Of a DNA stretch of 64,000 bases, positions 31,801-55,583 are shown piece by piece; positions within the stretch are counted from its first letter, which is position 1, and every line of letters starts with the position of its first letter. The notes below the pieces were generated by a model. The model saw nothing but the letters and a program-made list of their open reading frames with translations. It was not told where the DNA came from and did no database searches. The translations under genes were made by a program, and so were the position numbers. Origin of the DNA: a virus; the IMG/VR virus record IMGVR_UViG_3300046779_002065, positions 32,001 through 96,000 of that record; one strand, written 5' to 3'.

Positions 31801-32607
31801 AGTAGCAAGTGCCGGACGATCTACTTTCAAAAGTTCAACCACAAAGTGCATGACTTCCTCCATCCCGATGTCTGGAGTCACACGTCCTTCTACCAAATAC
31901 ACCGTGTTACCTTTAGCAAACGCGTTGATAGAGCGCAGGTTTTTACCCGGGTGATCACTTTGTTTTAGCTCACTGGGATGAATCCATTGTACATCAACAC
32001 CTTTTACATTGTCCAATAAACGGTCAACCACTTCATTTACCTGGCGTTTCTTCTCCTGGTATTCGCTGTCCTGGGTACTAAATCCTTTGACGTCTTTCAT
32101 GGAGTCATAGCGCACTTCGTTGAACTGAATCATGTAGCGCATTCGACCCATGTCGTCGTTGTAAGCGTGCAGGGATGCTTCGCCGGTAACAGCAACGTTG
32201 TTAATGTTGGCAACCAAACGCTGCGCCTTACGCATGTCATCGGTGTTGGACCCGTAGAACCTGATTTTAAAATCTCTCTCCAGGCGAGCTTTCTCTTCTT
32301 CGTACGTTACGGCGTCTGCACTCAGGTTGTAATTAATCCCTGACATGTCTTTCATTCCGGCAACATAGCCGACAACGGGTTCACCGTTCTCGTCCAGGTT
32401 AACCAGACTCTCCCCGTTTTCCCAGTCGCCGTGACGGTTTTTAAACTCCGGAGTGTACGCAATTGCCCACATCCGCAGTGCTTGTTCTTTGTCCCCAGCA
32501 AGTGCTGGAAGTTCCATGATGTCTTTGAACAGGATAGAGTCCTTGCTGTTTGGTGCAAGAACTCTTGAAATTTCTCCTGATTTGTTACGTATAATACTGC
32601 AAGCCAT
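25876..32607 (-). CDS. Giant virion/ejected protein (2243 aa) with a degenerate zincin-like domain and a PD-(D/E)XK nuclease domain
   Basis: MEEVMH zincin-like segment; GTFVHNMLE...GRIDFMAIDKKGRVTIYDLKT...YDAQLSVY nuclease motifs; adjacent to the RNAP as in crAss-like phages. Confidence 0.75.
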   Translation of the reverse strand: MACSIIRNKSGEISRVLAPNSKDSILFKDIMELPALAGDKEQALRMWAIAYTPEFKNRHGDWENGESLVNLDENGEPVVGYVAGMKDMSGINYNLSADAVTYEEEKARLERDFKIRFYGSNTDDMRKAQRLVANINNVAVTGEASLHAYNDDMGRMRYMIQFNEVRYDSMKDVKGFSTQDSEYQEKKRQVNEVVDRLLDNVKGVDVQWIHPSELKQSDHPGKNLRSINAFAKGNTVYLVEGRVTPDIGMEEVMHFVVELLKVDRPALATRLFKQAQVVAPALWAEIERTYTNEKGFTMGDRRSELITRVLQKEYAKEIENNAAREFDELRSILSKMFNWLKELLNKVFREKGYNVDVAVDFSEMPLDTTFAELAAILNTRNVLIEAYSIDNVLYNMEEPENADLDKELPVPGEEEKKDDSAWKQKILERQLERVDKQLEYLKLAERTSKPNASQRATLQKFRQQLLDYKQILINTPNKTRRVSRVIGQTDATGAENYANFGTFVHNMLEELQVRSLETGQAPIVLFEREDFNERYKETMDNPKTAFDFKGMTQEDVYKMTKEVIGFLGDVYAQGHILIPEMTMISKDPIRGAIVGRIDFMAIDKKGRVTIYDLKTARVNAGELPHNKLAKEYKKETFLPGVTPEFGMLKMRSKFMDYDAQLSVYERMMKQAGIEVNERIILSLIYANKNKNMRASNKDFEFASARVHRYSEFDYAYRTEYERDEEGNIISEKRVLRREFKRIREAAIASVYIEGETFDEREEATHEVVNLFELFQDTTLDEFIDLMVEGIDKQLSQLREELKKSEAYYSDPKVKEYYQNRSKQLYQIKEEMLKANDEDKLSLAKGMKLSAAIAALNLSAQQIEEEAARLDALPLTTEERLKRLSEIKTEAENLEEILGIIAEVGERNKLSSTEPVMQVLATSRAALSNAISKYRQQGERIMIEYIKESVPEEFVKQIYESRGQYIEGRIKGLEREITELENPEWKPAVWQARKRFTYTPQQIEQLRKEKLAEKQQELQKLLADQGKKSLTEQDIEDYVYSLMNNKDSRFYLGSNTSVTPIGFGLGDLISNSSNPELIVYAAFNKLRSLTNDAQNTAMNNFYEMEFDTHVKNFVSRKGGESAANAVLREKRTVTYYNEDGTTYTRDHYSFKNPVMQSYFDAYEGQRRLIADKRKLLNDLRRQRTADPTNQELNDQFAALDQEINSDVKKFNEWLQRFTEREFIDEYYDLSMSLPASVQAELDIIDEAISRIRSTKVGSEELLNETQLDQIHELELQRNKIYQEALKSDPDYQKKMERYRELKTFDENWGLYNKIRAEKIAAYGIDSEEFKRWEKLNKTRRPSDKFYKDVNRIYERIDAILGGQDPEMTALRAERSKIRRKYKMNGTFYSGNMDPQDIEAYDALEEKIEAIRKKAALEEGEDGLPLEVRKKLGVQYERLSKLQTQKQTESYTEELNKRVTELEKVANELREIESIYDYSGTSSEKALEERYINAQTNYYTLEEQFTAWYNKNHTNLYEPDTFRNGKVLDPAPKKIHFEQVPVEDLDDSYFEEVLHRKFRMSRPTEAAKNPRYQLTPEGYPVPKGLQLVNNRWEISGTNEFINPEFVKLTQNQTDYDFYNWLVMDNYIAKQDGTVGRKLAFLFPGVEMNKVDNIKEFGLIEGIKREYEETAQEVVLGKNKSQTDIASNEYGSADRMRVRFKHNFPLDAMLTTTNGITAVGMWMVEREINHEMGKADIAFSAIIDAMEGMRDHVTDTTKMNQLNKAIELVTFERDKFIYGKRMKGGDKDINTMKGLRLFMKAVSFGRLGFDFAAQTGNMLSGNVQTFLNAQKGDYTPSNLLYAKKKVYNILGSMISDYGKVSDVSFETKLVRFMNPNQKELSELVNLNTKSQLDRFLTQSMDFANLAYMLQDKGETEIALTTMVAIMDHHKYKVFDLDASGEKQYDTEGNVMYKMENGEPVLVNGFDIFTEDNTGKIVTRKDVDVTSQQVKMLRNKVYSQILKAQGNYADWTSTHISSTQFGVMMEYFKKYFVHMALRRFGKHQEDFEGMKFAAGWYRIMYDMFRQYGFKEGIKAMIPGNNKSEVNEYYRTGSLQAGRELLTGLVMMMLYGYLRGLAYSDDDDEVELNWMEMQIMRTFAKVISESRSMIPVPFVGNVNTYIDSFSNFTSVFREGKTMWKLVENSLSLMGYEIFGDSFEEAAFYQKRYGMYEAGDPKALKNFHDLIGYDNIIGIFEPEYKLKEQFKNK

Positions 32608-32615
32608 TTTTAGTG

Positions 32616-35600
32616 TTAGTTACATTTTGTTGATTCATCAGTCTTAGACTGAAGTACTTTATCTACCGAGTCAGTTTTGAAGAGCTGACTAAACTCATTA
32701 AATATTCCACGGTTCTTTGCTGCCTCATCTGCTGCATCGTTCATCTTGTGACCGCTGTGACCTTTAACCCACTCAAGTTTGACACTTCCGCCGTTTGCCT
32801 CGATCATCTCGATGCGCTCGATAGCTTTCTGTACGAGGTATTGGATGTATGGTTCTTTTGCTTTCCAAGGTTTTGGTTCACGCTGAAGAGATCCTTCACT
32901 GCGCTCCCAGAGAGCACCGTAGTTTACAGCACCTTTGTAGTCCTGGCGGATAACAATATGTTCGCTGCTGTTCTTAAATGAATCCAGGGTCATCACCAGA
33001 CCAAGCATCTCCATGGTAGGATTGGAGAACTTAGTTCCAGGAAAGAGAGCTTGAAACGACTTCATAGCTTTGCTTTCCTCTGTTCCGCTCATCTTGTACA
33101 TCTGACCGTTGAACTCAACAGCTGCTCCATATCCAAGTTTACCGGTCCCTTTAATGTCGCTTCCGTCTACAAAGATTTCCAGTGGAGTTGCTGGAGTAGA
33201 AAGTATTACAGGAGTAGACTGTTGAGGTTGAGTTGCAAGTTGATCCATTATTTTAGCATACTCTTCTTTTGGATTAACACCGCCTCTTGACAAAATGTGT
33301 TTCATTCCTTCTACTGATTGAAACCCATTTTCTTTAAGTTTATTGATAAACGGCAAATATTGTCTGTTTGTTAAATCTTCAGCAACAAATACAGCATACT
33401 GTAATCTGCCTTCAATTAAATCATTTACTCTATCATTGAAAGACTCAATTTGACTTTTTCTTAATACTTGTGAATTACTTATAAAAGTAAAAGAGGTTTT
33501 GTCTGCATACTCTTTTAATGTTGTAGAAGAATTAAATTGAGTGTTTAGTACAGCTTTACCTAAGAATGACAGATCTATTCCTGGATAGAGTTCACCCAAC
33601 GCTGCGCGATTCACCCGGTCTTCATACTGACCATAGTTTTCACCGACTTGTTTTGGACCCAACACAGCATGCTGACGTTCATGTTCCATAACAAAGGTTT
33701 CCCACTCTTCATACGATTTAAAAATATCTTCAGGGAATGCCGTTGCATAAGAATTATCACGTTGCTTCAGCGGGTTTGTCCAAGCTTTGTCGTAGTATTT
33801 CTCTCTTAACAAATTACGGTTAAGCACAATGGTGTTATCACCTCTTCTGAATTTAGCACCACCAGGTTCGTTGCTTCCTTCACGCTCAAGAGATTTTGAA
33901 TCAATCACCGTGATACCTTTATAAGTACCACCTGTTTCATCAATGCTGTTTATCTCAGGTTTAGCAGTACCTCTAGCATATTCATTCAGTTTGATTGCCT
34001 CATCTACTTCAAACGCAAGTGGATTGATATTAGAGTCACCCTGACGGCTTACTAACTTATACACTGCTTTGTTTCCGACAAATGGATTGGATGTGTTTAC
34101 ATCTGCTATATCCGCCTGGTCAGGATTTGCTTTGTTGTAGATCTGATCAAGTAACTTAGAACCTAATCCTTTGTCATCAACTTCACTGAGGATTAATAAA
34201 TCTCCATAGGTGTTGGTAACAAACAATGGGAAGCTGTATTTCTTTTCTCCAGTTTCCTTATTTGCTTTACGAGGGAAAATCTTGTAATGCATTGCAATAG
34301 CATCCTGAACCTGTTGTTCTTTAGCATCAGCAGGTTTCATGGAGATCATTACTTCATTGTTTTCATCAAGCAAGAACAGGTCATTGTTAGACGGATTTGT
34401 TTTACCTTCTTTGACACTTCTGTCCTGGTTTGTCTTATATTCACGTTTACGCTCTGTAAACGGATCATTGAGGTTCTTTGCTTCAGCAATAATCTTTTCA
34501 CCCATTCCAGGACGAATGCTTTTGATTGCTGCATGCATAGCTGCTTCACCATACTCCGTAAACTTGCCACGGTCATTGCTGTAGTTTAATACTTTCACAG
34601 CATTCTCATCTGGTACAGGATTGTAAATACTTACTGCTTTTTGAACAACGTCATCAATCAGTGTATCTACATCACCCTTTTCATCTAGAATACTTGCAAA
34701 CAAACTATTAAACTTGCTTTTGTATTCCGCTTGGTTCTGTGCTTTGGTTTTGCCAAACTCATCCAGTTCATTAAACGCTTTCTCAATCTTCTTGAGTTCA
34801 CCGCTGATTTCTCTAAAGTTATCAGGGTTTAGGAATGGACGCAAGCTGTAAGGTGCTGCTCCCATACCGTCTTTGATGATTGTATAATAAAACATCTGGT
34901 ACGCTGCCTCACGAACTGTCGGATCTGCATTGGTAAGAAGTTGGTCCAGTCCGTTCATGATCATGGTCTGACGATCTTTTGACAGCTTCACTTTACTGAT
35001 GCTGCGCATGATCTTTAACCCTTTGTCAGTCTTATGCGGAACAATAGATTTGATAAATGCGTTTTCAGGAAACTGAGACTTTAAACGGTTCATGATGTTA
35101 AACATGTCGTTGTTGTACCAGTAGTCTGCTTTAAGCATTTGCTGGAAACTCTTGTAACGTGCATACACTACAGGAGACTTCTCTTTGAACGAAGGATCCG
35201 CCAACGCTTTGTTGATGGTATTCTTCAGTGCATTGAGTGCTAAATAGTTCTTGATATGACCAGCTATCTTATCTGGAGTCGCTTCAAAGATGGCAGCATT
35301 TAACTGTCTGCTCAGTTCTTTGATGATAGGACTTCTCTCCAAGAACATCTTACCCAGTACTTCATCCATCAGTTCAACACTAGCTCCTAGTTTGTTATAC
35401 ACCGGACTTTCGCTAAAGATGTTGTTAAACCCTTTAAATGAACTTGCGTTTCTGTCTCTGCTGTAAGTTTCCATTAAACGATCTACGGCATTGAAGTCAG
35501 GTGCTAGAGATTTCTGTGCGTCGGTTAATGGAGTTAACTCAAAGCGGATTGCTTCAGCCTGTTCGTACTGCTTGATATATGCTGCAAGAATTACGACGTC

Positions 35601-38600
35601 TTTCATCTCTTGAGTAAGGATGCTTCCGTCATTAGCAACAATCTTTAATCCCAAAGAATCTACGGTAGGATTGTCACTGTTTGCTACGTTTGCATCGACA
35701 TTGTTTACATCGAATTCAAACGTATAGTCACTTAAATCAAATGATTCAGCAAATTCAATCAGACCGAAGTTAGTTGCCTTTTCCGTCTTTCCCTTCATCT
35801 CCAACAGACGTTTAGTCAACGCGTTGTTCATGTAGGTACCCAATGCCATACCATGCTTTCTACTACGACGAACAGAACCTTCTGTCTCCGCCATGTATTT
35901 ATCAATGGTGCTTTTTACACTAGGCATCAAATTAATGTAGATGCTCAGGTATGGATCAATACCCAATGATAACATCGTAGCTGTTACTCCCATGTTGTAC
36001 TGGTTAAGAGACAACACGGCAGGATAAGGTTTCTTAGCAGCATCGGCACTCATACCCAGAGAGTTTCCAATCAATGCGTGTGCACGCTCTGCGCTTGGAT
36101 CGGATTTCTCCGGAGTAAAATTCTCATAAACCTTACCGTTGATATTCCACAATGGTTCAGTTAATTCCAATCCATGTTTAACGGCAACACTCAATGCTTT
36201 ATTAAACGCGGCAAAGATTTCAATACCACGCTTTGCACTTTTGTTGGAGTCACGAACATTTGCTACAGACGTAATCGTTGCAAAGTTGCTTTGTCCAATC
36301 GTATCTTTTTCATCACGACCCAGTGTCTCTACAGCATTCTTATAGATATCTGCGTTGGAAGATTCTTTACTGTACAGATTATCAAAGACGTGTTTGTGTC
36401 CAAGAATCTGATTCATCGTTTTGGTAATCTCGTTCTGGATATTGGGAATTACCGGAGAACCATTTACTTTCTCGTAGCTAGCCAGGTCATCGGCAGTCAC
36501 CGGCATTCCAGAGTTCTGAAGCACGTTTACTACGGCAGCTACCTTCTCCAGGAGACGAAGCTGACGCTGTAGTTCAACACTTTGTTCATCCTGCTGGGTT
36601 TCCATGACCTGTGCAAGATCTTCCAGGGACGTAAATGTCCTACCCAGTGGTGCAATCTTCTTATCGGAAAGCAAATCACGGTAGCGGTTCTCCATAGATT
36701 TCTCTATGTCAGCCATGGATTGGTTGAAGAACTCCTGCACTTTAGGACCAAACATTGCAGAACTTTCTTTCAAGTTCTCAATCTGGTATTCCTTATCCTC
36801 GCGCATACGACGCAGCTCTTTGCTCACCAGTGGACCAAAGAACGGATCGTCCATCATGTAATGGAGATACTCAACGAATTTTGCAGTCTTGGTATCTAAC
36901 CCATAGCGGTTCTCATATTCAGAATAATCACCATAGATGTTTAGCTCACCCAATACGTTCTCGTACGTACCCATTACACGGGCGTACAATGCATCGATAT
37001 CTTTATCAGAACCAGAGAGGTAATGCACCTGTTCTGGAACAACAATCGTATTGATATAGGTCGCATCAATGTATCCTGCTACTTTCACGCGCACCATCGA
37101 ACGTTTATCCTCTGTAGGAATACGTGTTGCAAAGAACTCCTCCATGGATTTCTCAATGACTCTGAGTTTGCTTGGGTTGGTAGTAGTAGGACGAGGAATC
37201 AATACTTCCACGTAATAGTCTTCGTTACCATTTTCGTCAACTGTTTTTCTAAAAGATGGGTAACGGGTTTTGTAATTTTTGTATTTACCAGGGTTCTTAC
37301 GAATCAGGTAGTCTGGAACCGGCTGATCGTTTTCATCCACAATGATTTTATAACCAAAAGAAGAACCGTGGTAGAATTTGAAACCAGGTGCTTTTGGTTG
37401 GAACATGGTAGAGTTTGCCATGGAGAACACATAGTACTTCAACGCCTCGGTGATCCCGTTCAAGTTGGTACTGTGTACAGGCTGACCATCCACTACATCC
37501 CACATCTTGAGCATGTTTTGTGGTGCACCCTGTTTCTGCAACGACTCTTGGATTAGTTTAAAGAAGCTGGCAACATCGATTTCTCCGTCTTGCTTTACAA
37601 TACGCTCAAACTTCATCCGTGCGTTAAACGACATGTCGCTCAACAGCTTACGATACTTGATCACCAGGTCTTTTAAGTCTTGAGGAACATTTGGATCCTT
37701 TAAGTCTAAGTCTGTATCGATCAACAACTTAGGTTGAATAGAGTCCGTCACATCATGGTGATGCGCTTCCGTAGCTACCTGGTTATAAGCATAACTCATT
37801 GGAATGGTTGCCACGTTGTTTCCTAGATCCCAGTACCCGCTAGCATTTTCAAGTTCTTCTACGCTGGTTACGTACGGAATAACGGTACCACGCTTGGAAG
37901 CACTGTTGTCAGATACTTGTCCAAGACGGTGGAATTCCATATTGTTCAAAATGCTGTGCAGCATTTCTCTTCCGTTTATAGGAACAAACTCCTCGTGAAT
38001 CTTAGTGATTGTATCACGGTAAAGCTGCTCTATTGACTCATTGTTCTCGTTTACTTCTTTTCCCATGTCTAGCTGACCTTCATAGAGATCGGCTAGTTTG
38101 TATAACTCTGCTACGCGTAAACGCGCTGCTTTGGTATTTGAATCCTTGTAATAGCTTACAGTAAAACGGTTAATGTAATGCTCACTCATCTTGAGGTAAT
38201 GAATCGGATGAGCAGTTACCGTCTTCTGTGGATTTAACTGGATACCACGACCATTTAAATATTCAATGTCTTCCCAGGATACTTGTTTGTAGCGAAGGGA
38301 ACGAATGATGCTGTCGGCACGTGCGTCTTTTTTACCTTCTGCATTCAAGAAGTTCAAACGGTGATTGAGTCGTTGGTATACGTGACCATCCAGGATAGAA
38401 AACTTCTCTGCATTCTCTACATCGGATTGATTATGAGACTGCGCTTTGGTGATGTCATTTTTATCAAAGAACACCGGCATCTCTTTTTCTACATCCTTTG
38501 CACCTGCAATAGTGATAACAGCGTGTCGGTAGGTAATGTTACCTGCCTGGATCAGCATGCTTGCTGCCTCAGCGTTTTTACCAGCTGCCGCCTGAGATTT

Positions 38601-41600
38601 CAAACGCTTGTAGTAATCTACCGCATTTGCAAGACCCAGTGCTTTGTCACCGTCAAATAACTGATTAACCAACAATCGGTTAACCCAGTCATTGAAAAAG
38701 TAATCTTTTAAGAACTTATCAGTAGTAGTAATTGAGTTCGCTTTAGATACACCGTTCTCCTTGTAGTTTGTATCAAAGAATTCACTGCTGTATCCTTCTT
38801 TTGTCTTGTTGACGATTTTAGCTTTCTCCATGCTCTCCATGAAGAAATCAAACTCATCCTGAGCATACATATCTAACTGCTCAAATAAGCTTGACATGGC
38901 AGGCAATGCTAATGCTTCTTCAAAAGATTTACCTTCTTTAGCAGCAGCAATCAGCGTCTCACGCATCTGCGTTCTGGCAGCTACGTTTTCATCACTGATC
39001 GATGTGTCTGTTGGATCAATATCGTTTAAGAAGAAGCTGTCCAATTGATGGAACTGGTATGCTCTGAGTTTAGCACTTTCAGTATCCACCGTGTTGTCAG
39101 ACAAAAGAATACCGTTATAATCTTTGTAACGGAGTTTGTTTTCATGACGTGACGCCCACTGATTACCAATACGACTGTACTCTTGTTTAATCAGATCACT
39201 AAGACGTTTGCTGATTAAGCTGACTTTCTTGGAATTAACTTCCGTCTTTACAGCTGCATTATTGGTGGTGTACTGCTCATAGCGACCGGTTGTGTGAAAC
39301 AACGTTCCGGTAGCGTCATTCTGAGACGTAATACGTTTAAAGGTTTTTAATTCTTTACCTCCGCGTTTGTACGATTTACGATCTGTAAACAACGCAAGGT
39401 TGGAAAGATGAATACCAATCTTGTCAAGATCTGCGGCATCTGTGTTGATCGATCCGGTGTCGTCGATATTTTGAGAAAGACCACCGAGGTATCCAACTTT
39501 TAAATAATCCAGGAAGAGTTCTCCCAATCCATCCTCTGACAGATATGGGTTGTTATCAAACCAGCTTAGGAACTCAGGACCATATACCTCTAGGACAAAC
39601 TGACGAAGTCCCTTTGATTGTACGTCCTGCACAACCTGCATGTTTGGAGAGTACAGGGTAAAGCGGTATATCTTGTTGCCTGTAGTGTTCATGACCACCG
39701 GCTGACCAATCGTTGAGTCATAGCGGGTGAGGTACGTCATGGAAGGTAAGAAACTGGCAACGACGCTTTTACGGGTTTTGTTATCTTTGTTTTCAAACAA
39801 TGGAACAGACCCTGTGTAGCTAAACATGTACCACATAGCTTTCAGCATGCTGGTAGTCATGTATCCTTTTTCTTTAAAGATGTCGCTGTTTGCAAGCAAC
39901 ACTGCTCTGGCGTTGCTACCGTCAGGTAAACGATACCCGCTTTCGGTAATCAATGCCGCCAAAGAGAAATGGAAGAAGTGACGTGGAATACCAAGTCCTG
40001 CTTCTGCAGTGATTACATACAAGTCATCGGCAAACTTGTTCACCTTGGCGTCCGAGAACTCACCATTCTCCAGGTAAAACTCAGAGATGTTTTTACCATC
40101 GTCGCTTAACTCTCTGCTTAGAAGCGTTAAGTCATTCTGGATTTTCTGTTTGTCTTCTGCAGAAAGTGCTGTATAATTATTGTTGTATCCGTCAATGATA
40201 CGGTTGAGTGCCTGGAAGTTATCCTGGGACTGCACCATATCCACGGTGTTTAATTCACTCTTTATAGTGATACCACTAATTTCAAAACTTCTGCTGGTTT
40301 TAACATCCACACGGGTAATCTCACCACTTGCTACATAGAACACGCTGTGAAACTGGTTGAACATTGCTTCAGAACGGGTCGGTTTACCATCTACAATTCC
40401 GCAGGTGGTATCCAACATCTTCATCATCGCTTTAAGACTCTCTGCCAACTGATACACGGATTCATATTCCACCGGGTAACGATAGTTCATGCGACTACTC
40501 AAGCGACTCATATTAGACAAGTCTTCTTCCAATGTCTTAATCACTTGTCTGATCTGTGGAAGCAAGTCTTTCTTTCCAACATTTACCGTGATCTTTTTAA
40601 CAGTGTCAAACAACCTGTCGGCATCTACCGGGCGACGCATGGTAACGCCAAACATGTCTTCCTGTTCATAAACCAGGAACTGGAAAATCTTACGGAACTC
40701 ACGGTCTCCTTCCGAAGTACCTGTTTCCAGTAATCCAAGATCCGGATCCTTTGCACCTGATTCTTCTACATCATTGTTAGCTTTAGCAAACGCCTCTGCT
40801 GTATTCTCACCAGTAACCTGGTCTGAAGCAGCAGCCTGTTCTATCGTATCAATAACGTTCAGATTGTTGTACACCTCCAGGACCAACGCCTTCATCTGGC
40901 GGTAACTTTCTTCCGCACTTTTTGTGTAGGTTTCACCCGTCTCGTTTCCAATGTACTTGTTATCATAGTTTGGATCACCTGTAAGGTTTGCTACCGGGAA
41001 TTTCTCCCCAAGTTTCATAGAACCCAACACGTATCTAAAGTCACGGAGTTTGTTTTCATACGTCTCCCTGATCACACGTTCAGCACTTGGATTCTGACTG
41101 ATAAAGTTCTCAATGTTATAGTATGACACCATGGTCTTTGCAATCTGATCGTACAAATCAGACGTAGTAATTCCAGCAGATTTACTACGGAGCATCTCAT
41201 AGACCATCATATTGCGCAACTCCATCATCTCATCAGCGTTCATACTGTTAGGGAAACGAACAATTTTATCGTTTAGTAATCCCATGGTAGGAACTGTCTT
41301 GATCAATGCATACGCACCTTCGACACCAGTGTATTCTTTTACGGTTGCATTCTTGTAATATCCGTTATGAATACGGTCGAATGTTTTTTCGAGTTCATCC
41401 TTGTGCTTGGTAAAGAAGTCAAGCAACGACTGGATAAGGTTAAATAATTTCTGGTACCAGGTTTCTGCTTTGGTTTTCTTGGTCGCATACTTCTGGAATT
41501 TGTCTGCCATGCGTTCCTCCGCCATCAATTCAATGACTTCGGTGTTGCTCATGTGTGCAAGACCACGACGTTGCTTACGGAACTCCGCAATCTGAGATTC

Positions 41601-44600
41601 AGAGATGATTCCCATCTTCTCGTATTCACGACGTAATAAGTCAGCGCGCTCTTGTGGACTCAACAAATAACGGAACACAGCATGGAACGCTTCATGGTAA
41701 GCAGTTCCTGGGTTGGAAAGATTCTTACTGAGGTAAATCACTTTGTCCTTGATATACCCCAACACGTTTCCTTCAGCATCCAGGTGACGGACAATCTTCT
41801 CCAAATCGTCAATTGCAATCCCTGCAGGCAGACGATCACGGATGTAATCTACCTGGCGTTGAAATTCATCCTGCTCAAAGGCAGAACGCTCCAGAGCAGT
41901 ACCCAAAGAGAAGGTTCCATCAAACTCATCAATGTCATCCAATGGGGTGCTGCCTGCAGCAGGAGTATTGTTTGGTGCTACACTTGGTTTCTTTTTATCT
42001 TCAAATGAAACATTTTCCTCACCAAAGGACGGCAATACTTCATTTTTAGGCATTGTTGCTGCATCTTCCAATGCATGCGGGAAGTTGTAATGCAGGTTAA
42101 GACGTGTCTTGTAGTGTGCTTTTACAGTGTAATAAGTATCGAGGTTACTGGATTTTGTCGTACGGTCATTAAGTGCCACAGACGGTTGCAATCCTTGTTT
42201 GGATACAAAGAGTTGTTGCATGAACTCTTTCTTGTCACCCATCATACGTTCTGCCATCTCGCGGACGGTAGCATCTTCGTTATTGAGTAAGGCGTCTATT
42301 TTCTTTTCAAAGTTCTTTAACAGTTTCTTTTCCAATGAACTGTACGCCTTTTCAATTTGCTGTTCCAGCATTTGTACAGATTCTTTATCGCTGCCATACT
42401 TGAGTAATCCGTCCAATTGATCAAACATCTTCTCCATTCCTTCAGGGGTAGATGTATCAGCAGGAAGACCTTCTTTTTTAAAGAACTCTTCTACCGCGCT
42501 GGTGATGTCTTTAAGGACGCTGTCACCAACCAAGAAGCTTAACTTAGACGCATGCTCGTTGAAGAACTCTGCATCCGGGTGACTGTCCAATGCCGTAAAC
42601 TGAACACCCAAAAACGTTTTACCGTCCTTGGTCATGTTGACAAAGAAATCAGGTTGGATCTTACGGATAACGTCAAATCCTAATATGTTGTTATTAAAGT
42701 TTCTGTAGTACGGAGTGGTTGCTGTAGTCTTATCAAATCTGCTATAAAACCCAAATAGAGACAACAACGCTTTTGCTTTGGTAGTTGCATTTGACGGTGT
42801 CTTGTCCCTCATTAATGGAACGACTGCATAGCTTCCTGTCCTGGAAGGAACAATCATGGCGTGTTTGTATCCAGTGAGCTTGCTCAAGTTAGCAATCACT
42901 TTACCAGCTTTGGGAAGTTCAAACTTCTCTACGTATTCTTTCCATTTGTATTTAACACCTTCTACCAGGATAAATTCACCTGGTCCAAGTAATTCTACCG
43001 GCATGTAGGGTGCACCCTTTGTAGAAGACACTGCCTGGAAAAGAAGTGGTAAACGACGTTCCATCACATTACCCGGATCGTTCTCATTAATTACCGATAC
43101 GGTAATACCACTCTCATGAGCAGCCAGGAACTGGTCCAGACGCTTGTCTTTTAAACGGTCTTCAAAGTTTACTTTATCAGAAAAATCTACAGCATATACT
43201 GTATTGGTCAGTTCATAATATTTGTTGAAAAGCTCTGCAGGTATTTGGGTTTCTCCTTTGTCAAGCAATACTTGCACTTCTGCTTTGAACTCTTTAAATC
43301 GACGTGCACCATCGCGAAGCATTTGAAGATCTTCCAGTGATGTTGGACGTATGGTGGTCTCTGTTGTACCTACGCCTCCACGCACCTGGGTGAGCGTAGC
43401 AAATAAACTCAAGTCTTCCTCATTCTCCAGGTCAAGTAAACGAGTCGTGTTATCCGGATAAACAACCACGTAGTTATTAAAATCCATCAACGTTACAGTC
43501 TTACCGGTAGGAGAGACCATACGAATGGCAAACCCATCGGTCATACGACCACGCGTAAGAATGACCTTACCACTTTGTAATGCCATGATTTGTGCAGGCG
43601 TCTCCCGGGTCTCGATGGTACGGTTTGCTAAACTTGGGTATTGATCCGTAGCATTCTGGATCATTTGCATACGGGATGCGTTACGCTGTGCACCCGTGCT
43701 ATCAGCAATGATAGTAACCAGATTGGATGGAGAAACATTTGCACCGGAGAGTTCTTCCGTAAATGCGTCGACATCTTCCCCGATCATAACAAGTCCCGTG
43801 CGCAGTTCACCTGCGTCTACAAGAACAGTAGCACCGTCGTTTGCAATAAAACGCGTATTTGGTACATTAAGTTTTTTAGGTTTTGGATTGTTGTCAAGTA
43901 CATAAAGCTCTCCTGTAGACTGGAGGTTCTCATCAGCATAGAAATATTCTTCCCCTTCACGGATCAGATCCACCACGGTACCATCACTCAAGTACACCTC
44001 GTAGTGATTGGTTCCAAATCCTGGTAACGTACGCAAATCCACATAGCTTGCCATGTTGTTGCTATTACGAACCAGTGCAATGGCATCTTCTAACTTGCGT
44101 ACAAAATCGCGTCTTACTCTTTTGTCCTCAATAGAGTTGTTTACTTTGTCCAGTGCGTTTCGTAAAATCTTTTCGCTGTTCAGTTCATTGGTTTCATTTA
44201 AACCAGCGTCCAGTACAGCACGCTCCCTGACAATCGTATCGATAGCATTCTTAACCGCACTGTGACGTTTGATCACAGGGGATTCCAATGCTTCAGACAA
44301 TTGTGCAGCAAGTTCTTTAGTACGTTTATTTTGGGTGGTCTCTTCGCTGCTTGTAATACCTAGGTGTTCCTGGAGAAGGTTTAACGCCTGGGTAAAACGA
44401 TTTGCATCCAGACTGGTGTCATTTACCAGTGGATACACGGTCGCATCAATAAAACTATCCAGCTTGTTCAGTTCAAAGACTGTAGACTTCTTGGATAATT
44501 GTTTGTACAACTCGCTGTAAGCAATGATAATATTGCTCTTAGCTTCGTCGGTGAGATTAGTCAGCTTAACAATATCGCGAACTGAATTTTCGAGATTGCG

Positions 44601-44675
44601 ATATTTTTCGGGATTAGTACGAAGTGCTTGTTGCAGCGCGGTGCGCAGCACTTTAGAATCTATAGTGCAGGACAT
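32616..44675 (-). CDS. Virion RNA polymerase (crAss-like, single-chain two-barrel) with two zincin-like domains and a C-terminal RNase H
   Basis: TRIPTEDKRSM...GSDKDIDALY catalytic DxDxD at 36993-37007; YLKMSE; HEAFH at 41682-41696; HERQH at 33669-33683; RNase HI motifs at about 32700-33185. Confidence 0.85.
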   Translation of the reverse strand: MSCTIDSKVLRTALQQALRTNPEKYRNLENSVRDIVKLTNLTDEAKSNIIIAYSELYKQLSKKSTVFELNKLDSFIDATVYPLVNDTSLDANRFTQALNLLQEHLGITSSEETTQNKRTKELAAQLSEALESPVIKRHSAVKNAIDTIVRERAVLDAGLNETNELNSEKILRNALDKVNNSIEDKRVRRDFVRKLEDAIALVRNSNNMASYVDLRTLPGFGTNHYEVYLSDGTVVDLIREGEEYFYADENLQSTGELYVLDNNPKPKKLNVPNTRFIANDGATVLVDAGELRTGLVMIGEDVDAFTEELSGANVSPSNLVTIIADSTGAQRNASRMQMIQNATDQYPSLANRTIETRETPAQIMALQSGKVILTRGRMTDGFAIRMVSPTGKTVTLMDFNNYVVVYPDNTTRLLDLENEEDLSLFATLTQVRGGVGTTETTIRPTSLEDLQMLRDGARRFKEFKAEVQVLLDKGETQIPAELFNKYYELTNTVYAVDFSDKVNFEDRLKDKRLDQFLAAHESGITVSVINENDPGNVMERRLPLLFQAVSSTKGAPYMPVELLGPGEFILVEGVKYKWKEYVEKFELPKAGKVIANLSKLTGYKHAMIVPSRTGSYAVVPLMRDKTPSNATTKAKALLSLFGFYSRFDKTTATTPYYRNFNNNILGFDVIRKIQPDFFVNMTKDGKTFLGVQFTALDSHPDAEFFNEHASKLSFLVGDSVLKDITSAVEEFFKKEGLPADTSTPEGMEKMFDQLDGLLKYGSDKESVQMLEQQIEKAYSSLEKKLLKNFEKKIDALLNNEDATVREMAERMMGDKKEFMQQLFVSKQGLQPSVALNDRTTKSSNLDTYYTVKAHYKTRLNLHYNFPHALEDAATMPKNEVLPSFGEENVSFEDKKKPSVAPNNTPAAGSTPLDDIDEFDGTFSLGTALERSAFEQDEFQRQVDYIRDRLPAGIAIDDLEKIVRHLDAEGNVLGYIKDKVIYLSKNLSNPGTAYHEAFHAVFRYLLSPQERADLLRREYEKMGIISESQIAEFRKQRRGLAHMSNTEVIELMAEERMADKFQKYATKKTKAETWYQKLFNLIQSLLDFFTKHKDELEKTFDRIHNGYYKNATVKEYTGVEGAYALIKTVPTMGLLNDKIVRFPNSMNADEMMELRNMMVYEMLRSKSAGITTSDLYDQIAKTMVSYYNIENFISQNPSAERVIRETYENKLRDFRYVLGSMKLGEKFPVANLTGDPNYDNKYIGNETGETYTKSAEESYRQMKALVLEVYNNLNVIDTIEQAAASDQVTGENTAEAFAKANNDVEESGAKDPDLGLLETGTSEGDREFRKIFQFLVYEQEDMFGVTMRRPVDADRLFDTVKKITVNVGKKDLLPQIRQVIKTLEEDLSNMSRLSSRMNYRYPVEYESVYQLAESLKAMMKMLDTTCGIVDGKPTRSEAMFNQFHSVFYVASGEITRVDVKTSRSFEISGITIKSELNTVDMVQSQDNFQALNRIIDGYNNNYTALSAEDKQKIQNDLTLLSRELSDDGKNISEFYLENGEFSDAKVNKFADDLYVITAEAGLGIPRHFFHFSLAALITESGYRLPDGSNARAVLLANSDIFKEKGYMTTSMLKAMWYMFSYTGSVPLFENKDNKTRKSVVASFLPSMTYLTRYDSTIGQPVVMNTTGNKIYRFTLYSPNMQVVQDVQSKGLRQFVLEVYGPEFLSWFDNNPYLSEDGLGELFLDYLKVGYLGGLSQNIDDTGSINTDAADLDKIGIHLSNLALFTDRKSYKRGGKELKTFKRITSQNDATGTLFHTTGRYEQYTTNNAAVKTEVNSKKVSLISKRLSDLIKQEYSRIGNQWASRHENKLRYKDYNGILLSDNTVDTESAKLRAYQFHQLDSFFLNDIDPTDTSISDENVAARTQMRETLIAAAKEGKSFEEALALPAMSSLFEQLDMYAQDEFDFFMESMEKAKIVNKTKEGYSSEFFDTNYKENGVSKANSITTTDKFLKDYFFNDWVNRLLVNQLFDGDKALGLANAVDYYKRLKSQAAAGKNAEAASMLIQAGNITYRHAVITIAGAKDVEKEMPVFFDKNDITKAQSHNQSDVENAEKFSILDGHVYQRLNHRLNFLNAEGKKDARADSIIRSLRYKQVSWEDIEYLNGRGIQLNPQKTVTAHPIHYLKMSEHYINRFTVSYYKDSNTKAARLRVAELYKLADLYEGQLDMGKEVNENNESIEQLYRDTITKIHEEFVPINGREMLHSILNNMEFHRLGQVSDNSASKRGTVIPYVTSVEELENASGYWDLGNNVATIPMSYAYNQVATEAHHHDVTDSIQPKLLIDTDLDLKDPNVPQDLKDLVIKYRKLLSDMSFNARMKFERIVKQDGEIDVASFFKLIQESLQKQGAPQNMLKMWDVVDGQPVHSTNLNGITEALKYYVFSMANSTMFQPKAPGFKFYHGSSFGYKIIVDENDQPVPDYLIRKNPGKYKNYKTRYPSFRKTVDENGNEDYYVEVLIPRPTTTNPSKLRVIEKSMEEFFATRIPTEDKRSMVRVKVAGYIDATYINTIVVPEQVHYLSGSDKDIDALYARVMGTYENVLGELNIYGDYSEYENRYGLDTKTAKFVEYLHYMMDDPFFGPLVSKELRRMREDKEYQIENLKESSAMFGPKVQEFFNQSMADIEKSMENRYRDLLSDKKIAPLGRTFTSLEDLAQVMETQQDEQSVELQRQLRLLEKVAAVVNVLQNSGMPVTADDLASYEKVNGSPVIPNIQNEITKTMNQILGHKHVFDNLYSKESSNADIYKNAVETLGRDEKDTIGQSNFATITSVANVRDSNKSAKRGIEIFAAFNKALSVAVKHGLELTEPLWNINGKVYENFTPEKSDPSAERAHALIGNSLGMSADAAKKPYPAVLSLNQYNMGVTATMLSLGIDPYLSIYINLMPSVKSTIDKYMAETEGSVRRSRKHGMALGTYMNNALTKRLLEMKGKTEKATNFGLIEFAESFDLSDYTFEFDVNNVDANVANSDNPTVDSLGLKIVANDGSILTQEMKDVVILAAYIKQYEQAEAIRFELTPLTDAQKSLAPDFNAVDRLMETYSRDRNASSFKGFNNIFSESPVYNKLGASVELMDEVLGKMFLERSPIIKELSRQLNAAIFEATPDKIAGHIKNYLALNALKNTINKALADPSFKEKSPVVYARYKSFQQMLKADYWYNNDMFNIMNRLKSQFPENAFIKSIVPHKTDKGLKIMRSISKVKLSKDRQTMIMNGLDQLLTNADPTVREAAYQMFYYTIIKDGMGAAPYSLRPFLNPDNFREISGELKKIEKAFNELDEFGKTKAQNQAEYKSKFNSLFASILDEKGDVDTLIDDVVQKAVSIYNPVPDENAVKVLNYSNDRGKFTEYGEAAMHAAIKSIRPGMGEKIIAEAKNLNDPFTERKREYKTNQDRSVKEGKTNPSNNDLFLLDENNEVMISMKPADAKEQQVQDAIAMHYKIFPRKANKETGEKKYSFPLFVTNTYGDLLILSEVDDKGLGSKLLDQIYNKANPDQADIADVNTSNPFVGNKAVYKLVSRQGDSNINPLAFEVDEAIKLNEYARGTAKPEINSIDETGGTYKGITVIDSKSLEREGSNEPGGAKFRRGDNTIVLNRNLLREKYYDKAWTNPLKQRDNSYATAFPEDIFKSYEEWETFVMEHERQHAVLGPKQVGENYGQYEDRVNRAALGELYPGIDLSFLGKAVLNTQFNSSTTLKEYADKTSFTFISNSQVLRKSQIESFNDRVNDLIEGRLQYAVFVAEDLTNRQYLPFINKLKENGFQSVEGMKHILSRGGVNPKEEYAKIMDQLATQPQQSTPVILSTPATPLEIFVDGSDIKGTGKLGYGAAVEFNGQMYKMSGTEESKAMKSFQALFPGTKFSNPTMEMLGLVMTLDSFKNSSEHIVIRQDYKGAVNYGALWERSEGSLQREPKPWKAKEPYIQYLVQKAIERIEMIEANGGSVKLEWVKGHSGHKMNDAADEAAKNRGIFNEFSQLFKTDSVDKVLQSKTDESTKCN

Positions 44676-44694
44676 TATTCAAGGGGATGGATTA

Positions 44695-47600
44695 CTACAG
44701 TTTGCAGAAAACAGCTTCACCCAATGAATCAAACGGATTAGTATCCTCAGTATTTGACGCATTAGTAGAGATGGTTCCTACTTCAAATTTACGACTTTTT
44801 GTAGACTTTTTTGTAGATTTTTTTGTAGTCTCTACAGATCTTTCTACATAATTCACTAAAGGAGTGAACTCATCTATGGCGGTCACTAAATCTGTTACGA
44901 GTGAATCCAACGTGCTGGTGTACTGTTCAACAGGGGTAACAGGCGTTACGTTCTTGTTTTCCGTTTGTACACGAGTCTCCGCTTTGGCGTCTTCAAATTG
45001 AAGTTCTAGTTGTTCGACGCTCTCCTGGAGAGAAGTCGGTTCACTTTTAGCTTTGCTATTACGCGGAGCTTTTTTTCCGTCGGCAACACCCGCATCATCA
45101 CTAGATTGCTTACTAGCAGCTTTTTGCTTTCGCTTTGCTTTTCTGGATTTTTTGTCTTTAACAGTGGGGTCATTAGGTTTGTTATCAGGTGGGTACTTAC
45201 TATTTAATTTGTTGAGGTCATAGTTTATATCGTCTTCAAGTTTATCCAACAATGGACCTTGAACACTGGATTCATTTTTCAAAGTTAATGCATTGAGAAA
45301 AGAATTACGCAATGCTTCCACTTCTTCAGGAGTCAAATCCTCACGGAATAAAAACTTTAAATACGCATCAGCCGGAAATGTATCACTGATTTGTTTAACA
45401 GCATTAGCTTCTTTGGAATTGTTTTCCGCGTCAAGAAGTTCTTTTGCTAACGCCTCTTGTTCTTCTGCAGCAATTGCGTCATGCATTTCCTGTAATGAAG
45501 TGCTGACAGCATTGATGTATTGCTTGAATATACCATTACGTCCGACACGCTGTCCAGCTTTGGTCTGGTATGCAAGACCAGTGATCTCCCCGGTAGATTC
45601 GCTGCGTACAATGGTAAAATCTTTTCCGTCAATCTTGACAGTACTGCGATCATCGCTGGTAAACTCTACCGTAAACACCTTGTCATCAACAGCAACAACC
45701 TCTCCATCATCAGTGCTTGCTTCAGGAGCTAGACTCAAACCAGGATATTCTTCCAGTAAACTGTCTTCCGGACCTAATGTAAGTTCTAAACCGCTGTCCA
45801 GTTTGACAAAATATAACTCAAACTCATCCTGGGTCTTTTGAATAATACCAGCTTCACCGTTATACATGACACGTTTACCTTCCTGCCACTTCAACTTTTG
45901 CTTCTCGTCCCGGATAGCATTCTCTTTTTCATCCTCTAATTGTTGCACTTCATTGTTTACAGCAGGTGCATCATTTACTGAATTAATGGAAGGACTATCT
46001 CCAGGAGCAGCCTCTGTAGGATCTCCGGGTTCAGGTATCAATGTAAACCACTGCTTACCATCTTGTTTTACTTTTGTATAGCTTACTTCACCGTTGTCTC
46101 CAGCTGCTATTTCTTCAATGACGTCACCGGTTTCCGGGTTAAACACTATAAACACATACCCATCAGGATCTTCATCTAGTTCTGCAGTATTGCCGTCTTC
46201 AGTTTTAAACTGTCGACCGACAAGGTTTTTCAGTTTGCGAGCTTCTTTGAGAATAGTCTCATCAACAACAGATCCTTTGGTGTTTGATGTAAACAGTTCA
46301 GTTTCAAACTTGACAGCAAAATTGAAACAATCATTTTCGGTGATGTCCAATTCTCCTTCATGTGTTACCACTGGTTCTGGAACCCTGCTGTCTACAACAC
46401 GTTGGAACGAATAGCGGTTCCCGGCAATCTGTTTAAAAATATAATGCTTGTTAACAAATGATACAACTTGTACATCCATTCCCCGGTCCAGCATCATCTG
46501 CAGGTTCTCCGGTTCCAGTGCTTTGGGAGACGTGGTTATATTTCCTGTTTCATCTTTGTTTACGTTTTCAGAATCAGTAGTGTCTGCTGATTTCTTTGCT
46601 TTGTCGTTTTCAGGATTCTCAGTTTTCTTTTTCTTATCCTCCAGTGCTTTGGAAATCTTTCCTTTAAGTTCTGCCAGGTATGCAAACGCCTGGTTTGTAA
46701 TCATAGGAGAGTCCGCAAATCGTTCTGCTTCTTTGATTAACTTTTCATTCTCATTGAGCAATCTTCCAAACACAGGATCCATCAACGCAAGGTGTCGGAT
46801 CATCTGCACCATGTTGTTTGCGTGAGCACCAATACGAGCAGCCATTGCTGCATCCATTGTCTTGTTAAAAGCAATAGGATCATTGAGCATGTTCAGTGCG
46901 TCAACCATCTTACGGTTTTCTTCACCCAACTCCATGTAGTCAACAATATCCTGCATCGCTGCATCAATGTCTTCCTGCTTAACGTTGGTGTTGATACGAC
47001 CTTCCGCATTCTTGGAAACTAGGAAACGCTTGAATGCATCAGATGCTTTGGTTCTTTCTACGGAACTCTTCTGGCGAAGTGCTTCATTGTTATATGTGTA
47101 AGTGCTCGTCTCATCTTTTGATTGAGTCACTGTATACCCAATAGCTTCTGTCCAGTCATTAAGTGCTTTACGTTGCTCTTTCTTATGTTTAATCAGACGC
47201 TCTGTCTCTTCAGACTTCACTTCCTGTTGCTCAAGACTTCTGATTTCGTTATCCAAAATCATGCTCTCGTTCTTCAGCTCTGTAAGATTGGTCAGCTTAT
47301 CAAACCCCGATGACACTGACTGTCCAATACTGTCGTACTGACTGATTTTGCTTTGAATACCGGCACGACGTTTTACTGCGTCCTGCGCTTTATTTTCATG
47401 GAATGATACGGTCTCAATAGCGTCAAGCAATGAGGCACGTGCAATCTCAGATACAAGTTTCTTCTCCGGATCTTTGATGTATTTACCCAAGTCCAGGAAG
47501 TTTGCATACTTCTTCATATAGTGATCATAGGTCTCGCTGTAGCGTTCTATGTCAGAGGCAATCCTGGAGGTAAATTCTGCAGGAGAGTTGTACCCTGCGT

Positions 47601-52356: not shown

Positions 52357-52378
52357 TAAACTTCTAAAGTTTAAACTT
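52357..52378. repeat. 22-bp palindrome-containing element, copy A
   Basis: taaacttctaaagtttaaactt; 20/22 identical to 55586-55607. Confidence 0.6.
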
Positions 52379-55300: not shown

Positions 55301-55583
55301 AGAAGATAAAACTACCTCCAGGTACATTCAATGGAACACCCCCTTGTGTATGTCTTTTCCCGGTAATAGTCATGTGCTCGATGTTTCCATCGTTGTTGAT
55401 ATCACCTAATATAGTTTCACCACCCTCAGCTTCAATGTTTGCCATGTGGCGAGGTACAGCACCCATAGTATTTCTAGCTGCATTTGGGTCTTCTGAATTT
55501 GACGGAGACCATGGACGGTGGGTAGTTAACGAGTAATCGCGTTGATCACCGGTACGAGGGGTTTTCTTGATACGGACTTTCAT
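52377..55583 (-). CDS. crAss-like cargo/structural protein (1068 aa), modular
   Basis: ANIEAEGGETI...GKRHTQGGVPLNVPGGSFIFSD N-terminal module; several xxxGG linkers; CPDC...CQTAC cluster. Confidence 0.7.
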   Translation of the reverse strand: MKVRIKKTPRTGDQRDYSLTTHRPWSPSNSEDPNAARNTMGAVPRHMANIEAEGGETILGDINNDGNIEHMTITGKRHTQGGVPLNVPGGSFIFSDTKKMKIKDPEVLKHFGMGGKAGGYTPAQIAKQYQLNDFMKKVNDPQTDPFTRRTAERMLNNNMQKLSELAAYQEGMKGKQPPAVSEQMLPDGGAQMSQAAMPPQMNPEMMGQTDPAMMDELEMAYGGMTKMQTGGGSPLLVPGFQFYVGSQKAKIKSIDDNWIDDNYVHLEKPINGVSKIPLNDFKKHFGSSSPYKSVVGTEKEYLPSIPGGPPIPFANNNFLNEVSYKKIQPMFFGSTPAKDLNHKAALLGVENNNRLQFAPGTEFVAGSQKYKVVDAMLEGAAGEPVIKVTDSAGKTQYLNKKLITSYYKKNQLGLVNKDGSVVPFTQAGTTTEANASMGATRTVYDASGNPLQISINSETPAGYSENKTERKQPNIQKATGNVRQQTSGTPPRLKAQQSKERIYESDEEYLKWRLEQLQDKAMGGELFQDGGAYEQPKYKYDAVQRKMVPVFADGGGTGEKEYVNSYKTKDGKKRKEVTKGNTVTIYDEKNEVVSSHKIENDYQTYSAKDVEDWKKNGIDVTLPESLASNFGSDMTEGRQGARGDSGTYGTQNYWNDKNSGDFKKRHARFVAANPNFNPKKDSGVFQNWYNDDIYNQATKAGYSPEEATGYVNKFGFIADSKDPNAKDGLFGRYTWSRPTINIGKKPPGPQTVYRCPDCQPVQIPADQAVSASDFTSLSACQTACAGKTNTTTPEQKPQDNDFWIQHKLGIANAMNMDRFYGEPAMFQMNGATYDPQLEEYSAKNASLQSDASLAMSNINASADPTTARANIAAVAGQLGQAGLNEIANIQNRNVNTTNAVAADRAHMRNDVNGKNTAMRKQFYDETMNYGQNLVNSSNKQRTMITNSFNNAFQGLQNRNMMRAIYPMYDINSVTGANAFIDGEDFTEGTFQTQPTASTGQLKDIIEKYKSQLMSSGMSPDEATKQAAAFAKDEMNRNHQSSNISRRAYLQQNPQAALAGMTGGYTPYE

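Follow-up and report, generated by a model that had tools for sequence, protein, structure and literature searches.

Three giant genes that lie side by side in a phage judged from its sequence to be crAss-like encode proteins whose facing termini each carry one cysteine (Cys), and sequence comparison together with structure prediction gives good support to the view that these residues pair consecutive proteins. The genes are located in a window of 64,000 nucleotides (nt), i.e., bases 32001-96000 of IMGVR_UViG_3300046779_002065, a complete virus record of 128,275 bp with direct terminal repeats. They are adjacent on the minus strand, separated by gaps of 19 and 8 bases, and we refer to their products, in gene order, as A (1634 amino acids, aa), B (4019 aa, the RNA polymerase, or RNAP) and C (2243 aa). 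By analogy with phage A4 (see below), the link between paired cysteines is most likely a disulfide, and we give a probability of roughly 0.68 to the overall reading that A, B and C form a covalent concatemer. An original prediction, made from the letters of the window, had proposed that disulfides or other thiol links may join the three proteins in the order 1634-4019-2243, to be threaded through the tail in that order and released in the reducing cytoplasm. Of that proposal, the pairing in order is strongly supported by order-wide conservation, covariation at polypeptide breaks, a predicted B/C complex and the A4 precedent; threading and release are plausible.

A count by script found six cysteines among the 7896 residues of the three proteins, four of them at the facing termini. 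Protein A begins MADEF and ends AVFCKL, with Cys1091 (in ENDCFN) and Cys1632, the latter at −3 (negative offsets count from the C-terminus, −1 being the last residue). Protein B begins MSCTID and ends STKCN, with Cys3, Cys1425 (in LDTTCG) and Cys4018 at −2, and protein C begins MACSII and ends EQFKNK, with Cys3 as its sole cysteine. The facing cysteines, the cysteine-free outer ends (cysteine there would have spoken against a chain) and about two other cysteines in roughly 7900 residues had been reported by eye, and the script count agrees exactly. Positions 32599 and 44706 of the window are the outer bases of the codons for Cys3 of C and Cys1632 of A. From base composition, 44, 112 and 61 cysteines are expected in A, B and C, versus 2, 3 and 1 observed; cysteine makes up ~1–2% of residues in the non-structural genes of the same window, and internal cysteine is down to 0.04–0.12% in A, B and C. 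For six randomly placed cysteines, the probability of finding at least four among the 24 facing positions is 1.3e-9, and it is 6.4e-9 when any of the six terminal windows is allowed.

The terminal cysteines are conserved in orthologues across the order, cultured crassviruses included; their absence had been named beforehand as grounds for rejecting the chain. In the B family, all nine full-length relatives (63–25% identity) have cysteines at position 3–4 and at −2 to −6, with 0–2 others. Cys3 and Cys4018 of B are invariant in all nine, and Cys4018 is the last invariant column of the alignment (A1); P0010 and P0013, whose match spans just 5% of the query, near the RNase H domain, were left out of the orthologue count. 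In the C family, 46 of 48 matches have a cysteine at position 3–7 (position 12 in P0018, where the start is set too early). The two exceptions, of 1616 and 1635 aa, are ~600 aa short, come from contigs of 5–6 kb and are read as N-terminally truncated. The N-terminal cysteine is the sole one in 37 of the 48 proteins, and Cys3 is invariant among the 35 aligned relatives of C. All ten members of the A family have a cysteine at −1 to −4, which is the sole cysteine in nine of them.

The same pattern is seen in larger sets of loci and in cultured phages. A search of IMG/VR with the C-family alignment gave 46 loci, of which 44 have the B/C junction, with both cysteines in 44 of 44; the other two (L139 and L146) have no giant open reading frame (ORF) and were dropped from the count. 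A row for L126, in which the wrong ORFs had been paired, was dropped from a separate tabulation. Across 68 loci resembling phage crAss001, each intact gp50-like protein has both terminal cysteines, each gp49-like protein has the N-terminal cysteine, and each gp47-like protein has a sole, C-terminal cysteine. In crAss001 itself, the cysteines are at −3 in gp47, at 5 and −9 in gp50, and at 5 in gp49. Phage DAC15, with the same three-protein arrangement, has them at −3 in gp078, at 5 and −1 in gp076, and at 4 in gp077. In phi14:2, one protein has its sole cysteine as the last residue, the next has cysteines at 3 and −2, and the next a sole cysteine at 3. In the cultured Leptolyngbya phage Lbo-JY46, a sole cysteine at the last residue is followed by a sole cysteine at position 4 of the next protein. 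Phage crAss002 and the p-crAssphage-type LMMB likewise obey the rule. A separate Lbo-JY46 protein (L033:29334-31358, 674 aa, beginning MKKKCSKK) has a sole cysteine at position 5, follows a protein without cysteine and has no evident partner.

When all complete ORFs of at least 1300 aa are pooled, with intron-split halves included, 249 of the 255 distinct giant ORFs, drawn from 142 sources, have a cysteine no more than nine residues from an end, at positions 3–8 or at −1 to −9, and 171 have no internal cysteine. Of the six exceptions, one, a gp47-like ORF of 1620 aa (L068), is read as truncated, and the remaining five are different proteins encoded downstream of C. The computational count and the test of terminal enrichment that the original prediction had called for thus come to 308 cysteines in 4590 residues of terminal windows (6.7%) versus 117 in 550,906 inside (0.021%), a 316-fold enrichment, in a pool where many sequences are close relatives and independent events are fewer than the counts suggest. 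The rule persists down to 22–30% identity. Moreover, crAss001 gp47 is encoded on the opposite strand from gp50-gp49 and still keeps its C-terminal cysteine, and both cysteine codons are used, TGT in 319 cases and TGC in 35; the signal is therefore at the level of the protein.

The cysteine pairs also track the breaks in the polypeptide. Covariation between partners, another check that had been proposed, is seen as both members of a pair being gained or lost together at a fission and at fusions, and as the pair moving with a shifted break, with four cysteines per three-protein set, two per fused set and six per four-protein set. First, a large clade has a fusion of A and B. The giant of 4490–4740 aa has no N-terminal cysteine and a sole cysteine at −2 to −4, the next protein, C, has a sole Cys4, and both cysteines of the A/B junction are absent; A-family homology is found at residues 230–1130 in eight of ten such giants tested, and B-family homology after it in all ten. 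Second, LMMB and crAss002 have a fusion of B and C: one protein of 4070–4245 aa keeps Cys3 and has no C-terminal cysteine, and the upstream protein keeps its cysteine at −2. Third, in a fission clade, the ~590 nt that separate B′, whose sequence ends DENNC, from C encode a protein of 193–195 aa with exactly two cysteines, at 3–5 and −2. Over its last 56–74 residues, this protein shows homology to the end of unsplit B (54% identity to residues 4279–4333 of B in L005), and unsplit B has no cysteine at the place that matches the fission break. Fourth, the A/B break has shifted. The zincin motif is ~185 aa before the end of gp47 in crAss001 and ~990 aa after the start of B here, with homologous flanks in the two proteins; the break has moved by ~1100 residues, being earlier here relative to the zincin domain than in phi14:2 and crAss001, and a cysteine pair is located at the break in both arrangements.

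One apparent counter-example was rejected. In eight crAss001-like loci, gp50 is in two ORFs, without a cysteine at the interruption. What separates the two ORFs is a constant insert of ~920 nt, which carries a 181-aa ORF with HNH_3 and NUMOD1 domains and resembles a group I intron encoding a homing endonuclease; we read these genes as intron-interrupted, not as broken. Two further loci have questionable gene models. In L013:3668-17931, ORFs of 3090 and 1629 aa are located where the near-identical L025 has one gene of 4742 aa, probably reflecting a frameshift or a broken copy. In crAss002 gp33 (L105:9270-9368), the annotated start is probably 32 codons early, since MSCTPS at residues 33–38 fits the M-x-C start of its relatives.

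The two cysteines of the B/C junction are placed in one interface by a predicted complex. Co-folding B residues 3800–4019 with C residues 1–420 gave a score of 0.63, compared with 0.00 for the best of three controls; of the solved complexes, 58 of 80 attain that mark, as do 2 of 110 mismatched pairs. Agreement between runs extends to at least 26% of contacts, with a predicted local distance difference test score (pLDDT) of at least 76 for the partners. In the predicted interface, the last helix of B, including Cys4018, is positioned on C residues 1–7, including Cys3, and on residues 44–54 and 88–90. The co-fold of terminal peptides suggested in advance thus passes its controls at this junction. 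In the model of the C head (pLDDT 72), residues 13–88 resemble residues 2–94 of 6vr4_B (Z 6.7, root-mean-square deviation 2.7 Å, 72 aligned residues, 24% identity), and BLASTP matches phi14:2 gp077 residues 1–69 to C residues 1–79 at E 4.9e-4. This likeness to the N-terminal domain of the phi14:2 RNAP suggests that the acceptor head may be a module common to different pieces of the chain. With the C head as query, Foldseek found nothing below E 0.25 and VIA-align gave only middling Z values.

The closest precedent for a link of this kind comes from another phage. Cryo-electron microscopy of cyanopodophage A4 (Anabaena phage A-4L) showed a disulfide between gp27 Cys1715 and gp26 Cys5 in the pre-ejectosome, where the helix at the C-terminus of gp27 enters gp26 and is fixed there by the bond (PNAS 2025, PMC12002296). 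In the A-4L record, the 1717-aa protein has its sole cysteine at −3 and the 1114-aa protein has its sole cysteine at 5. The likeness to the proteins described here is twofold: in both cases the proteins are consecutive, very large ejection or internal proteins, with cysteines at −3/5 in A-4L and at −3/3 and −2/3 here, and the B/C co-fold predicts the same geometry of a C-terminal helix on an N-terminal head. However, A4 is a 42-kb podophage of another family with one link and no RNAP in the pair, whereas two links are proposed here (one to three in relatives), with the RNAP in the middle and pairs that follow gene fusions and fissions. The single A4 link is known; the proposed multi-link, order-wide form centred on the virion RNAP would be new. 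Term searches of PMC12002296 found neither "cysteine" nor "crAss", and gave no statement of a general rule or of conservation of the pair. Profiles of A, B and C gave no match on A-4L gp25–gp29 at E <= 10, and neither profile searches of PDB sequences nor two fold searches listed an A4 chain.

Phages closer to this one have the same module. It consists of gp65-gp66-gp67 in phi14:2 (GenBank gp076-gp078; gp66 is PDB 6VR4) and of gp47, gp50 and gp49 in crAss001; the proteins are homologous, with the same motifs and the same terminal cysteines, and are found in virions. Indeed, GenBank notes from tandem mass spectrometry list homologues of all three among the virion proteins of phi14:2, and gp47, gp49 and gp50 are cargo proteins detected by mass spectrometry in crAss001 (PMC10172136). 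The proteins described here differ in being much longer (4019 aa for the RNAP piece versus 2180–2412 aa in phi14:2 and crAss001) and in having an RNase H domain that ends the RNAP piece. From the virion cargo homologues of crAss001 and phi14:2, we infer that A, B and C are packaged; the label of ejection proteins given to them in the original prediction rests on the same homology. The phi14:2 preprint (10.1101/2020.03.07.982082) has no occurrence of "cysteine" or "disulfide", and the crAss001 paper, searched by terms, has no "cysteine" and uses "disulfide" only for the tail, the portal vertex and gp57 (PMC10172136). The crAss001 tail barrel, hubs and gp57 dimer are disulfide-stabilised (PMC10172136), meaning that disulfides do form in crassvirus particles. 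In the main texts of the literature searched, we found no statement of a terminal-cysteine rule for crassviruses. N4-like phages (Schitoviridae) also have a giant virion RNAP and partner ejection proteins, with total suppression of cysteine, which PMC11445570, relaying an earlier proposal, links to the oxidising periplasm that the proteins must cross. Near-total suppression is shared by the proteins described here, but the N4-like proteins have no terminal cysteine, whereas one is kept at each facing end here.

Several lines of evidence support the RNAP label that the original prediction gave to the 4019-aa protein. Its context SGSDKDIDALY resembles TGSDFDIDKMY of phi14:2, where the catalytic motif of gp66 is of the DFDxD type known from two-barrel RNAPs, and has counterparts in the RNAP proteins of crAss001, DAC15, LMMB and crAss002, and the G and the three D residues of the motif are invariant in alignment A4. 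A regular expression for the motif in the form D.D[GA]D matched nothing, the actual motif being DxDxD. BLASTP matches B to phi14:2 gp077 at E 2.8e-6 and to the LMMB RNAP at E 4e-14, weak support, obtained in a database of four sequences. The phi14:2 virion RNAP, 6vr4_A, is the sole Foldseek match at E <= 0.001 (5.6e-5), for a 700-residue model with a pLDDT of only 51.7.

These observations can be assembled into a mechanism. The three giant genes would constitute an RNAP cargo module that is packed in the capsid and delivered into the host, with A, B and C behaving as pieces of one long polyprotein. At each break, the C-terminal tail of the upstream protein would dock on the N-terminal head of the downstream protein, and the cysteine 1–9 residues from the upstream C-terminus would form an inter-protein disulfide with the cysteine at position 3–8 of the downstream protein once the particle is oxidised. 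The outcome would be a covalent, nearly linear 1634-4019-2243 concatemer of 7896 residues. The purging of all other cysteines would mean that no wrong disulfide can form and that the chain stays extrudable. As for function, such a chain would provide fixed stoichiometry, co-packaging, ordered and tethered exit through the tail, and release by reduction in the cytoplasm; of these, ordered threading with reductive release is plausible. A broader generalization is tentative, and we consider it doubtful as it stands: that crassviruses deliver the RNAP module as a redox-cleavable concatemer of ~5,000–8,000 residues, pulled through the tail in a fixed order with each piece dragging the next; that wherever the ancestral polyprotein gene is cut, a docking tail, a head and a cysteine pair re-stitch the pieces; that the host cytoplasm cuts the chain into active enzymes; and that terminal disulfide coupling, as in A4, may be general among short-tailed phages that inject giant proteins.

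A number of points weigh against the concatemer. In no crassvirus has a bond between these proteins been seen, whether by experiment or in density, and the crAss001 atlas resolved none of gp47, gp49 and gp50 (PMC10172136). Particles assemble in the host cytoplasm, which is reducing, and the bond could thus arise only later, following assembly or lysis. If the fused polyproteins are cut once made, for instance by the zincin domain, to which the phi14:2 preprint ascribes such processing (10.1101/2020.03.07.982082), their parts would be unlinked, which would argue that linkage is dispensable. N4-like phages deliver a giant RNAP without any cysteine (PMC11445570). The searches revealed no homology between these proteins and gp26 or gp27 of A4, which makes the A4 precedent an analogy. 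The co-fold is a measure of model confidence and covers B/C, the A/B junction (1634/4019) being outside it; its contacts list Cys3 against residues 4014–4015, not explicitly against Cys4018. Finally, two of the ten A-B fusions tested have no A-family match at E 1e-3.

Among other explanations, the one that fares best, though we regard it as unlikely, retains the disulfide and gives it a different role: it would merely staple folded, compact capsid cargo, serving assembly, stoichiometry or DNA spooling, with neither a single thread nor an ordered, redox-timed release. The bonded gp27-gp26 pair of A4 indeed forms the outer ring of a folded, pentameric, DNA-binding pre-ejectosome (PMC12002296), the co-fold gives a folded helix-on-domain interface, and the authors of the crAss001 study place gp47, gp49 and gp50 in the capsid cargo zone as folded helical proteins (PMC10172136). 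However, a mere staple would not need cysteines restricted to within 1–9 residues of an end, a position that makes the linked product almost unbranched. In addition, constrictions in the crAss001 tail demand partial unfolding of the cargo (PMC10172136), and a staple that broke before that point would need an extracellular reductant.

It is improbable that the terminal thiols instead bind elsewhere in the virion, whether to portal, capsid or different cargo, or to another molecule of their own protein, or jointly hold a metal ion. Candidate partners exist, since other virion proteins have cysteines (e.g., the 1068-aa protein with a CxxC..CxxxC motif described below, or crAss001 gp45 with Cys390 and Cys398), and there are maybe ~6 copies of each RNAP-module protein per crAss001 particle (PMC10172136). 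However, the cysteines are paired across breaks, with both members lost or gained together, and neither cysteine has a further conserved His, Asp, Glu or Cys ligand nearby, the only invariant positions of alignment A3 being M1, C3 and L238.

Still less probable is a role for the cysteines as nucleophiles, in self-processing of the N-terminal nucleophile (Ntn) type, in split-intein-like trans-splicing, or in joining akin to native chemical ligation. In some Ntn hydrolases, a short propeptide precedes the cysteine, and the N-terminal M-x(1-6)-C pattern resembles this; the zincin-domain processing proposed in the phi14:2 preprint is also compatible with such a role. Split inteins, however, have halves of tens of residues beyond the cysteine, for which there is no room when the cysteines are 1–9 residues from the ends, and no domain of the Hint or intein type is seen by Pfam. 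What precedes the N-terminal cysteine varies freely (MA, MS, MKQ, MTN, MSKR, MTPNH), the heads differ between clades, and neither the C-terminal cysteine nor the pairwise gain and loss is explained. Chance, composition bias or a nucleotide-level junction signal, for which one could cite the known cysteine poverty of ejected phage proteins (PMC11445570) and the consequently small number of cysteines to place, is refuted by the counts (P ~1e-9 in the window, 316-fold enrichment over 255 ORFs) and by the persistence of the pattern in non-adjacent, opposite-strand genes, with both codons and at low identity.

No phages of the human gut are more abundant than crassviruses. They pass several hundred kilodaltons of protein, the RNAP included, through a narrow tail, with the DNA following behind (PMC10172136). 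A rule that terminal cysteines follow fusions and fissions offers a cheap and concrete test, namely the comparison of virions under non-reducing and reducing conditions, and reduced and non-reduced mass-spectrometry runs of crAss001 virions exist (PMC10172136). If the rule holds, it would explain (i) why these proteins are purged of cysteine, (ii) how the module can be fused or split among lineages without loss of function, and (iii) how the stoichiometry and order of delivery are fixed. Terminal cysteines would also give annotators a mark for the real protein ends in giant crAss genes, such as the crAss002 gp33 start and the intron-split genes described above.

Table 1. Features of the proposed chain and of its relatives. 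Positions are those of the window unless a locus is named.
Feature	Position	Strand	Remarks
Protein A, 1634 aa, proposed first link	44695..49599	-	No Cys near N-terminus; Cys1632 near C-terminus
Codon of Cys1632 of A (TGC), proposed donor of link 1	44704..44706	-	
Protein B, 4019 aa, proposed middle link	32616..44675	-	Cys3 and Cys4018; zincin, RNAP motif, RNase H
Codon of Cys3 of B (TGC), proposed acceptor of link 1	44667..44669	-	
HEAFH zincin motif, residues 994-998 of B	41682..41696	-	Invariant in alignment A1
DKDID, residues 2557-2561 of B, DxDxD catalytic motif of crAss-type virion RNAP	36993..37007	-	
RNase H domain, residues 3832-3988 of B	32712..33182	-	PF00075 E 1.9e-10, 41.5 bits (cut-off 25.8); PHROG 531
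C-terminal tail of B, residues 4001-4019, predicted docking helix	32619..32675	-	Includes Cys4018; co-fold interface
Codon of Cys4018 of B (TGT), proposed donor of link 2	32622..32624	-	
Protein C, 2243 aa, proposed last link	25876..32607	-	Sole Cys3; none near C-terminus
Codon of Cys3 of C (TGC), proposed acceptor of link 2	32599..32601	-	
N-terminal head of C, residues 1-90, predicted acceptor module for B tail	32338..32607	-	Co-fold contacts
PD-(D/E)XK nuclease region, residues 494-619 of C	30751..31128	-	PF12705 E 4.9e-5, 23.8 bits (cut-off 22)
ORF of 193-195 aa between RNAP protein and next giant	L014:12888-13475		Also L128, L131, L142, L150
Constant insert of ~920 nt in gp50-like RNAP gene	L036:6195-7115		Also L057, L062, L063, L066, L073, L093, L095

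The assignment of the phage and of its domains came by several routes. PHROGs recognises a portal, a major head protein and a large terminase, and the gene order is terminase, portal, capsid, Cys-rich tail proteins, a 1802-aa protein and the cargo block. A search with the portal gave 146 GenBank phage records, mostly crAss-like, at 21–33% identity, the best being Lbo-JY46. Direct searches with the three giant genes (megablast, tblastn) found no GenBank phage matches, and entry to named phages came only through the portal and crAss001 gp49. A tblastn search with gp49 gave 106 phage records; those listed are mostly crassviruses, with Lbo-JY46 and some Cellulophaga phages also among them. Apart from RNase H and PD-(D/E)XK, little in A, B and C is named by PHROGs or Pfam, and profile searches of PDB sequences with alignments A1, A2 and A4 gave no meaningful match. 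Matches to crAss001 proteins connect all three: A residues 528–649 match gp47 residues 497–627, B residues 973–1110 match gp47 residues 2137–2293 (E 2.5e-9), and the C-family profile matches gp49 at E 2.6e-17. D598, D612 and K614 of C, in the PD-(D/E)XK region, are invariant in alignment A2. Precomputed Pfam annotation lists the RNase H domain at the end of the RNAP protein only for the protein in the window and its three closest relatives (P0001-P0004).

Residues 175–385 of C (window 31450-32085) have a weak zincin-like fold, with Z 6.9 to PPEP-2 and to the N-terminal domain of anthrax lethal factor. A conserved EGRVT..IEExxH replaces HExxH in this region, which may be an inactive zincin; the match is too weak for a claim. 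The 1068-aa virion protein (window 52377-55583) has only four cysteines, which form CxxC..CxxxC (755, 758, 780 and 784). The cluster is also present in the relative L001 and looks like a metal site. Outside the window, positions 103153-107718 of the record encode proteins of 218, 487 and 184 aa with 3.8–5.5% cysteine, next to a 445-aa protein with 1.8%. These Cys-rich proteins adjoin the Cys-free capsid and cargo proteins and recall the disulfide-stabilised tail barrel of crAss001.

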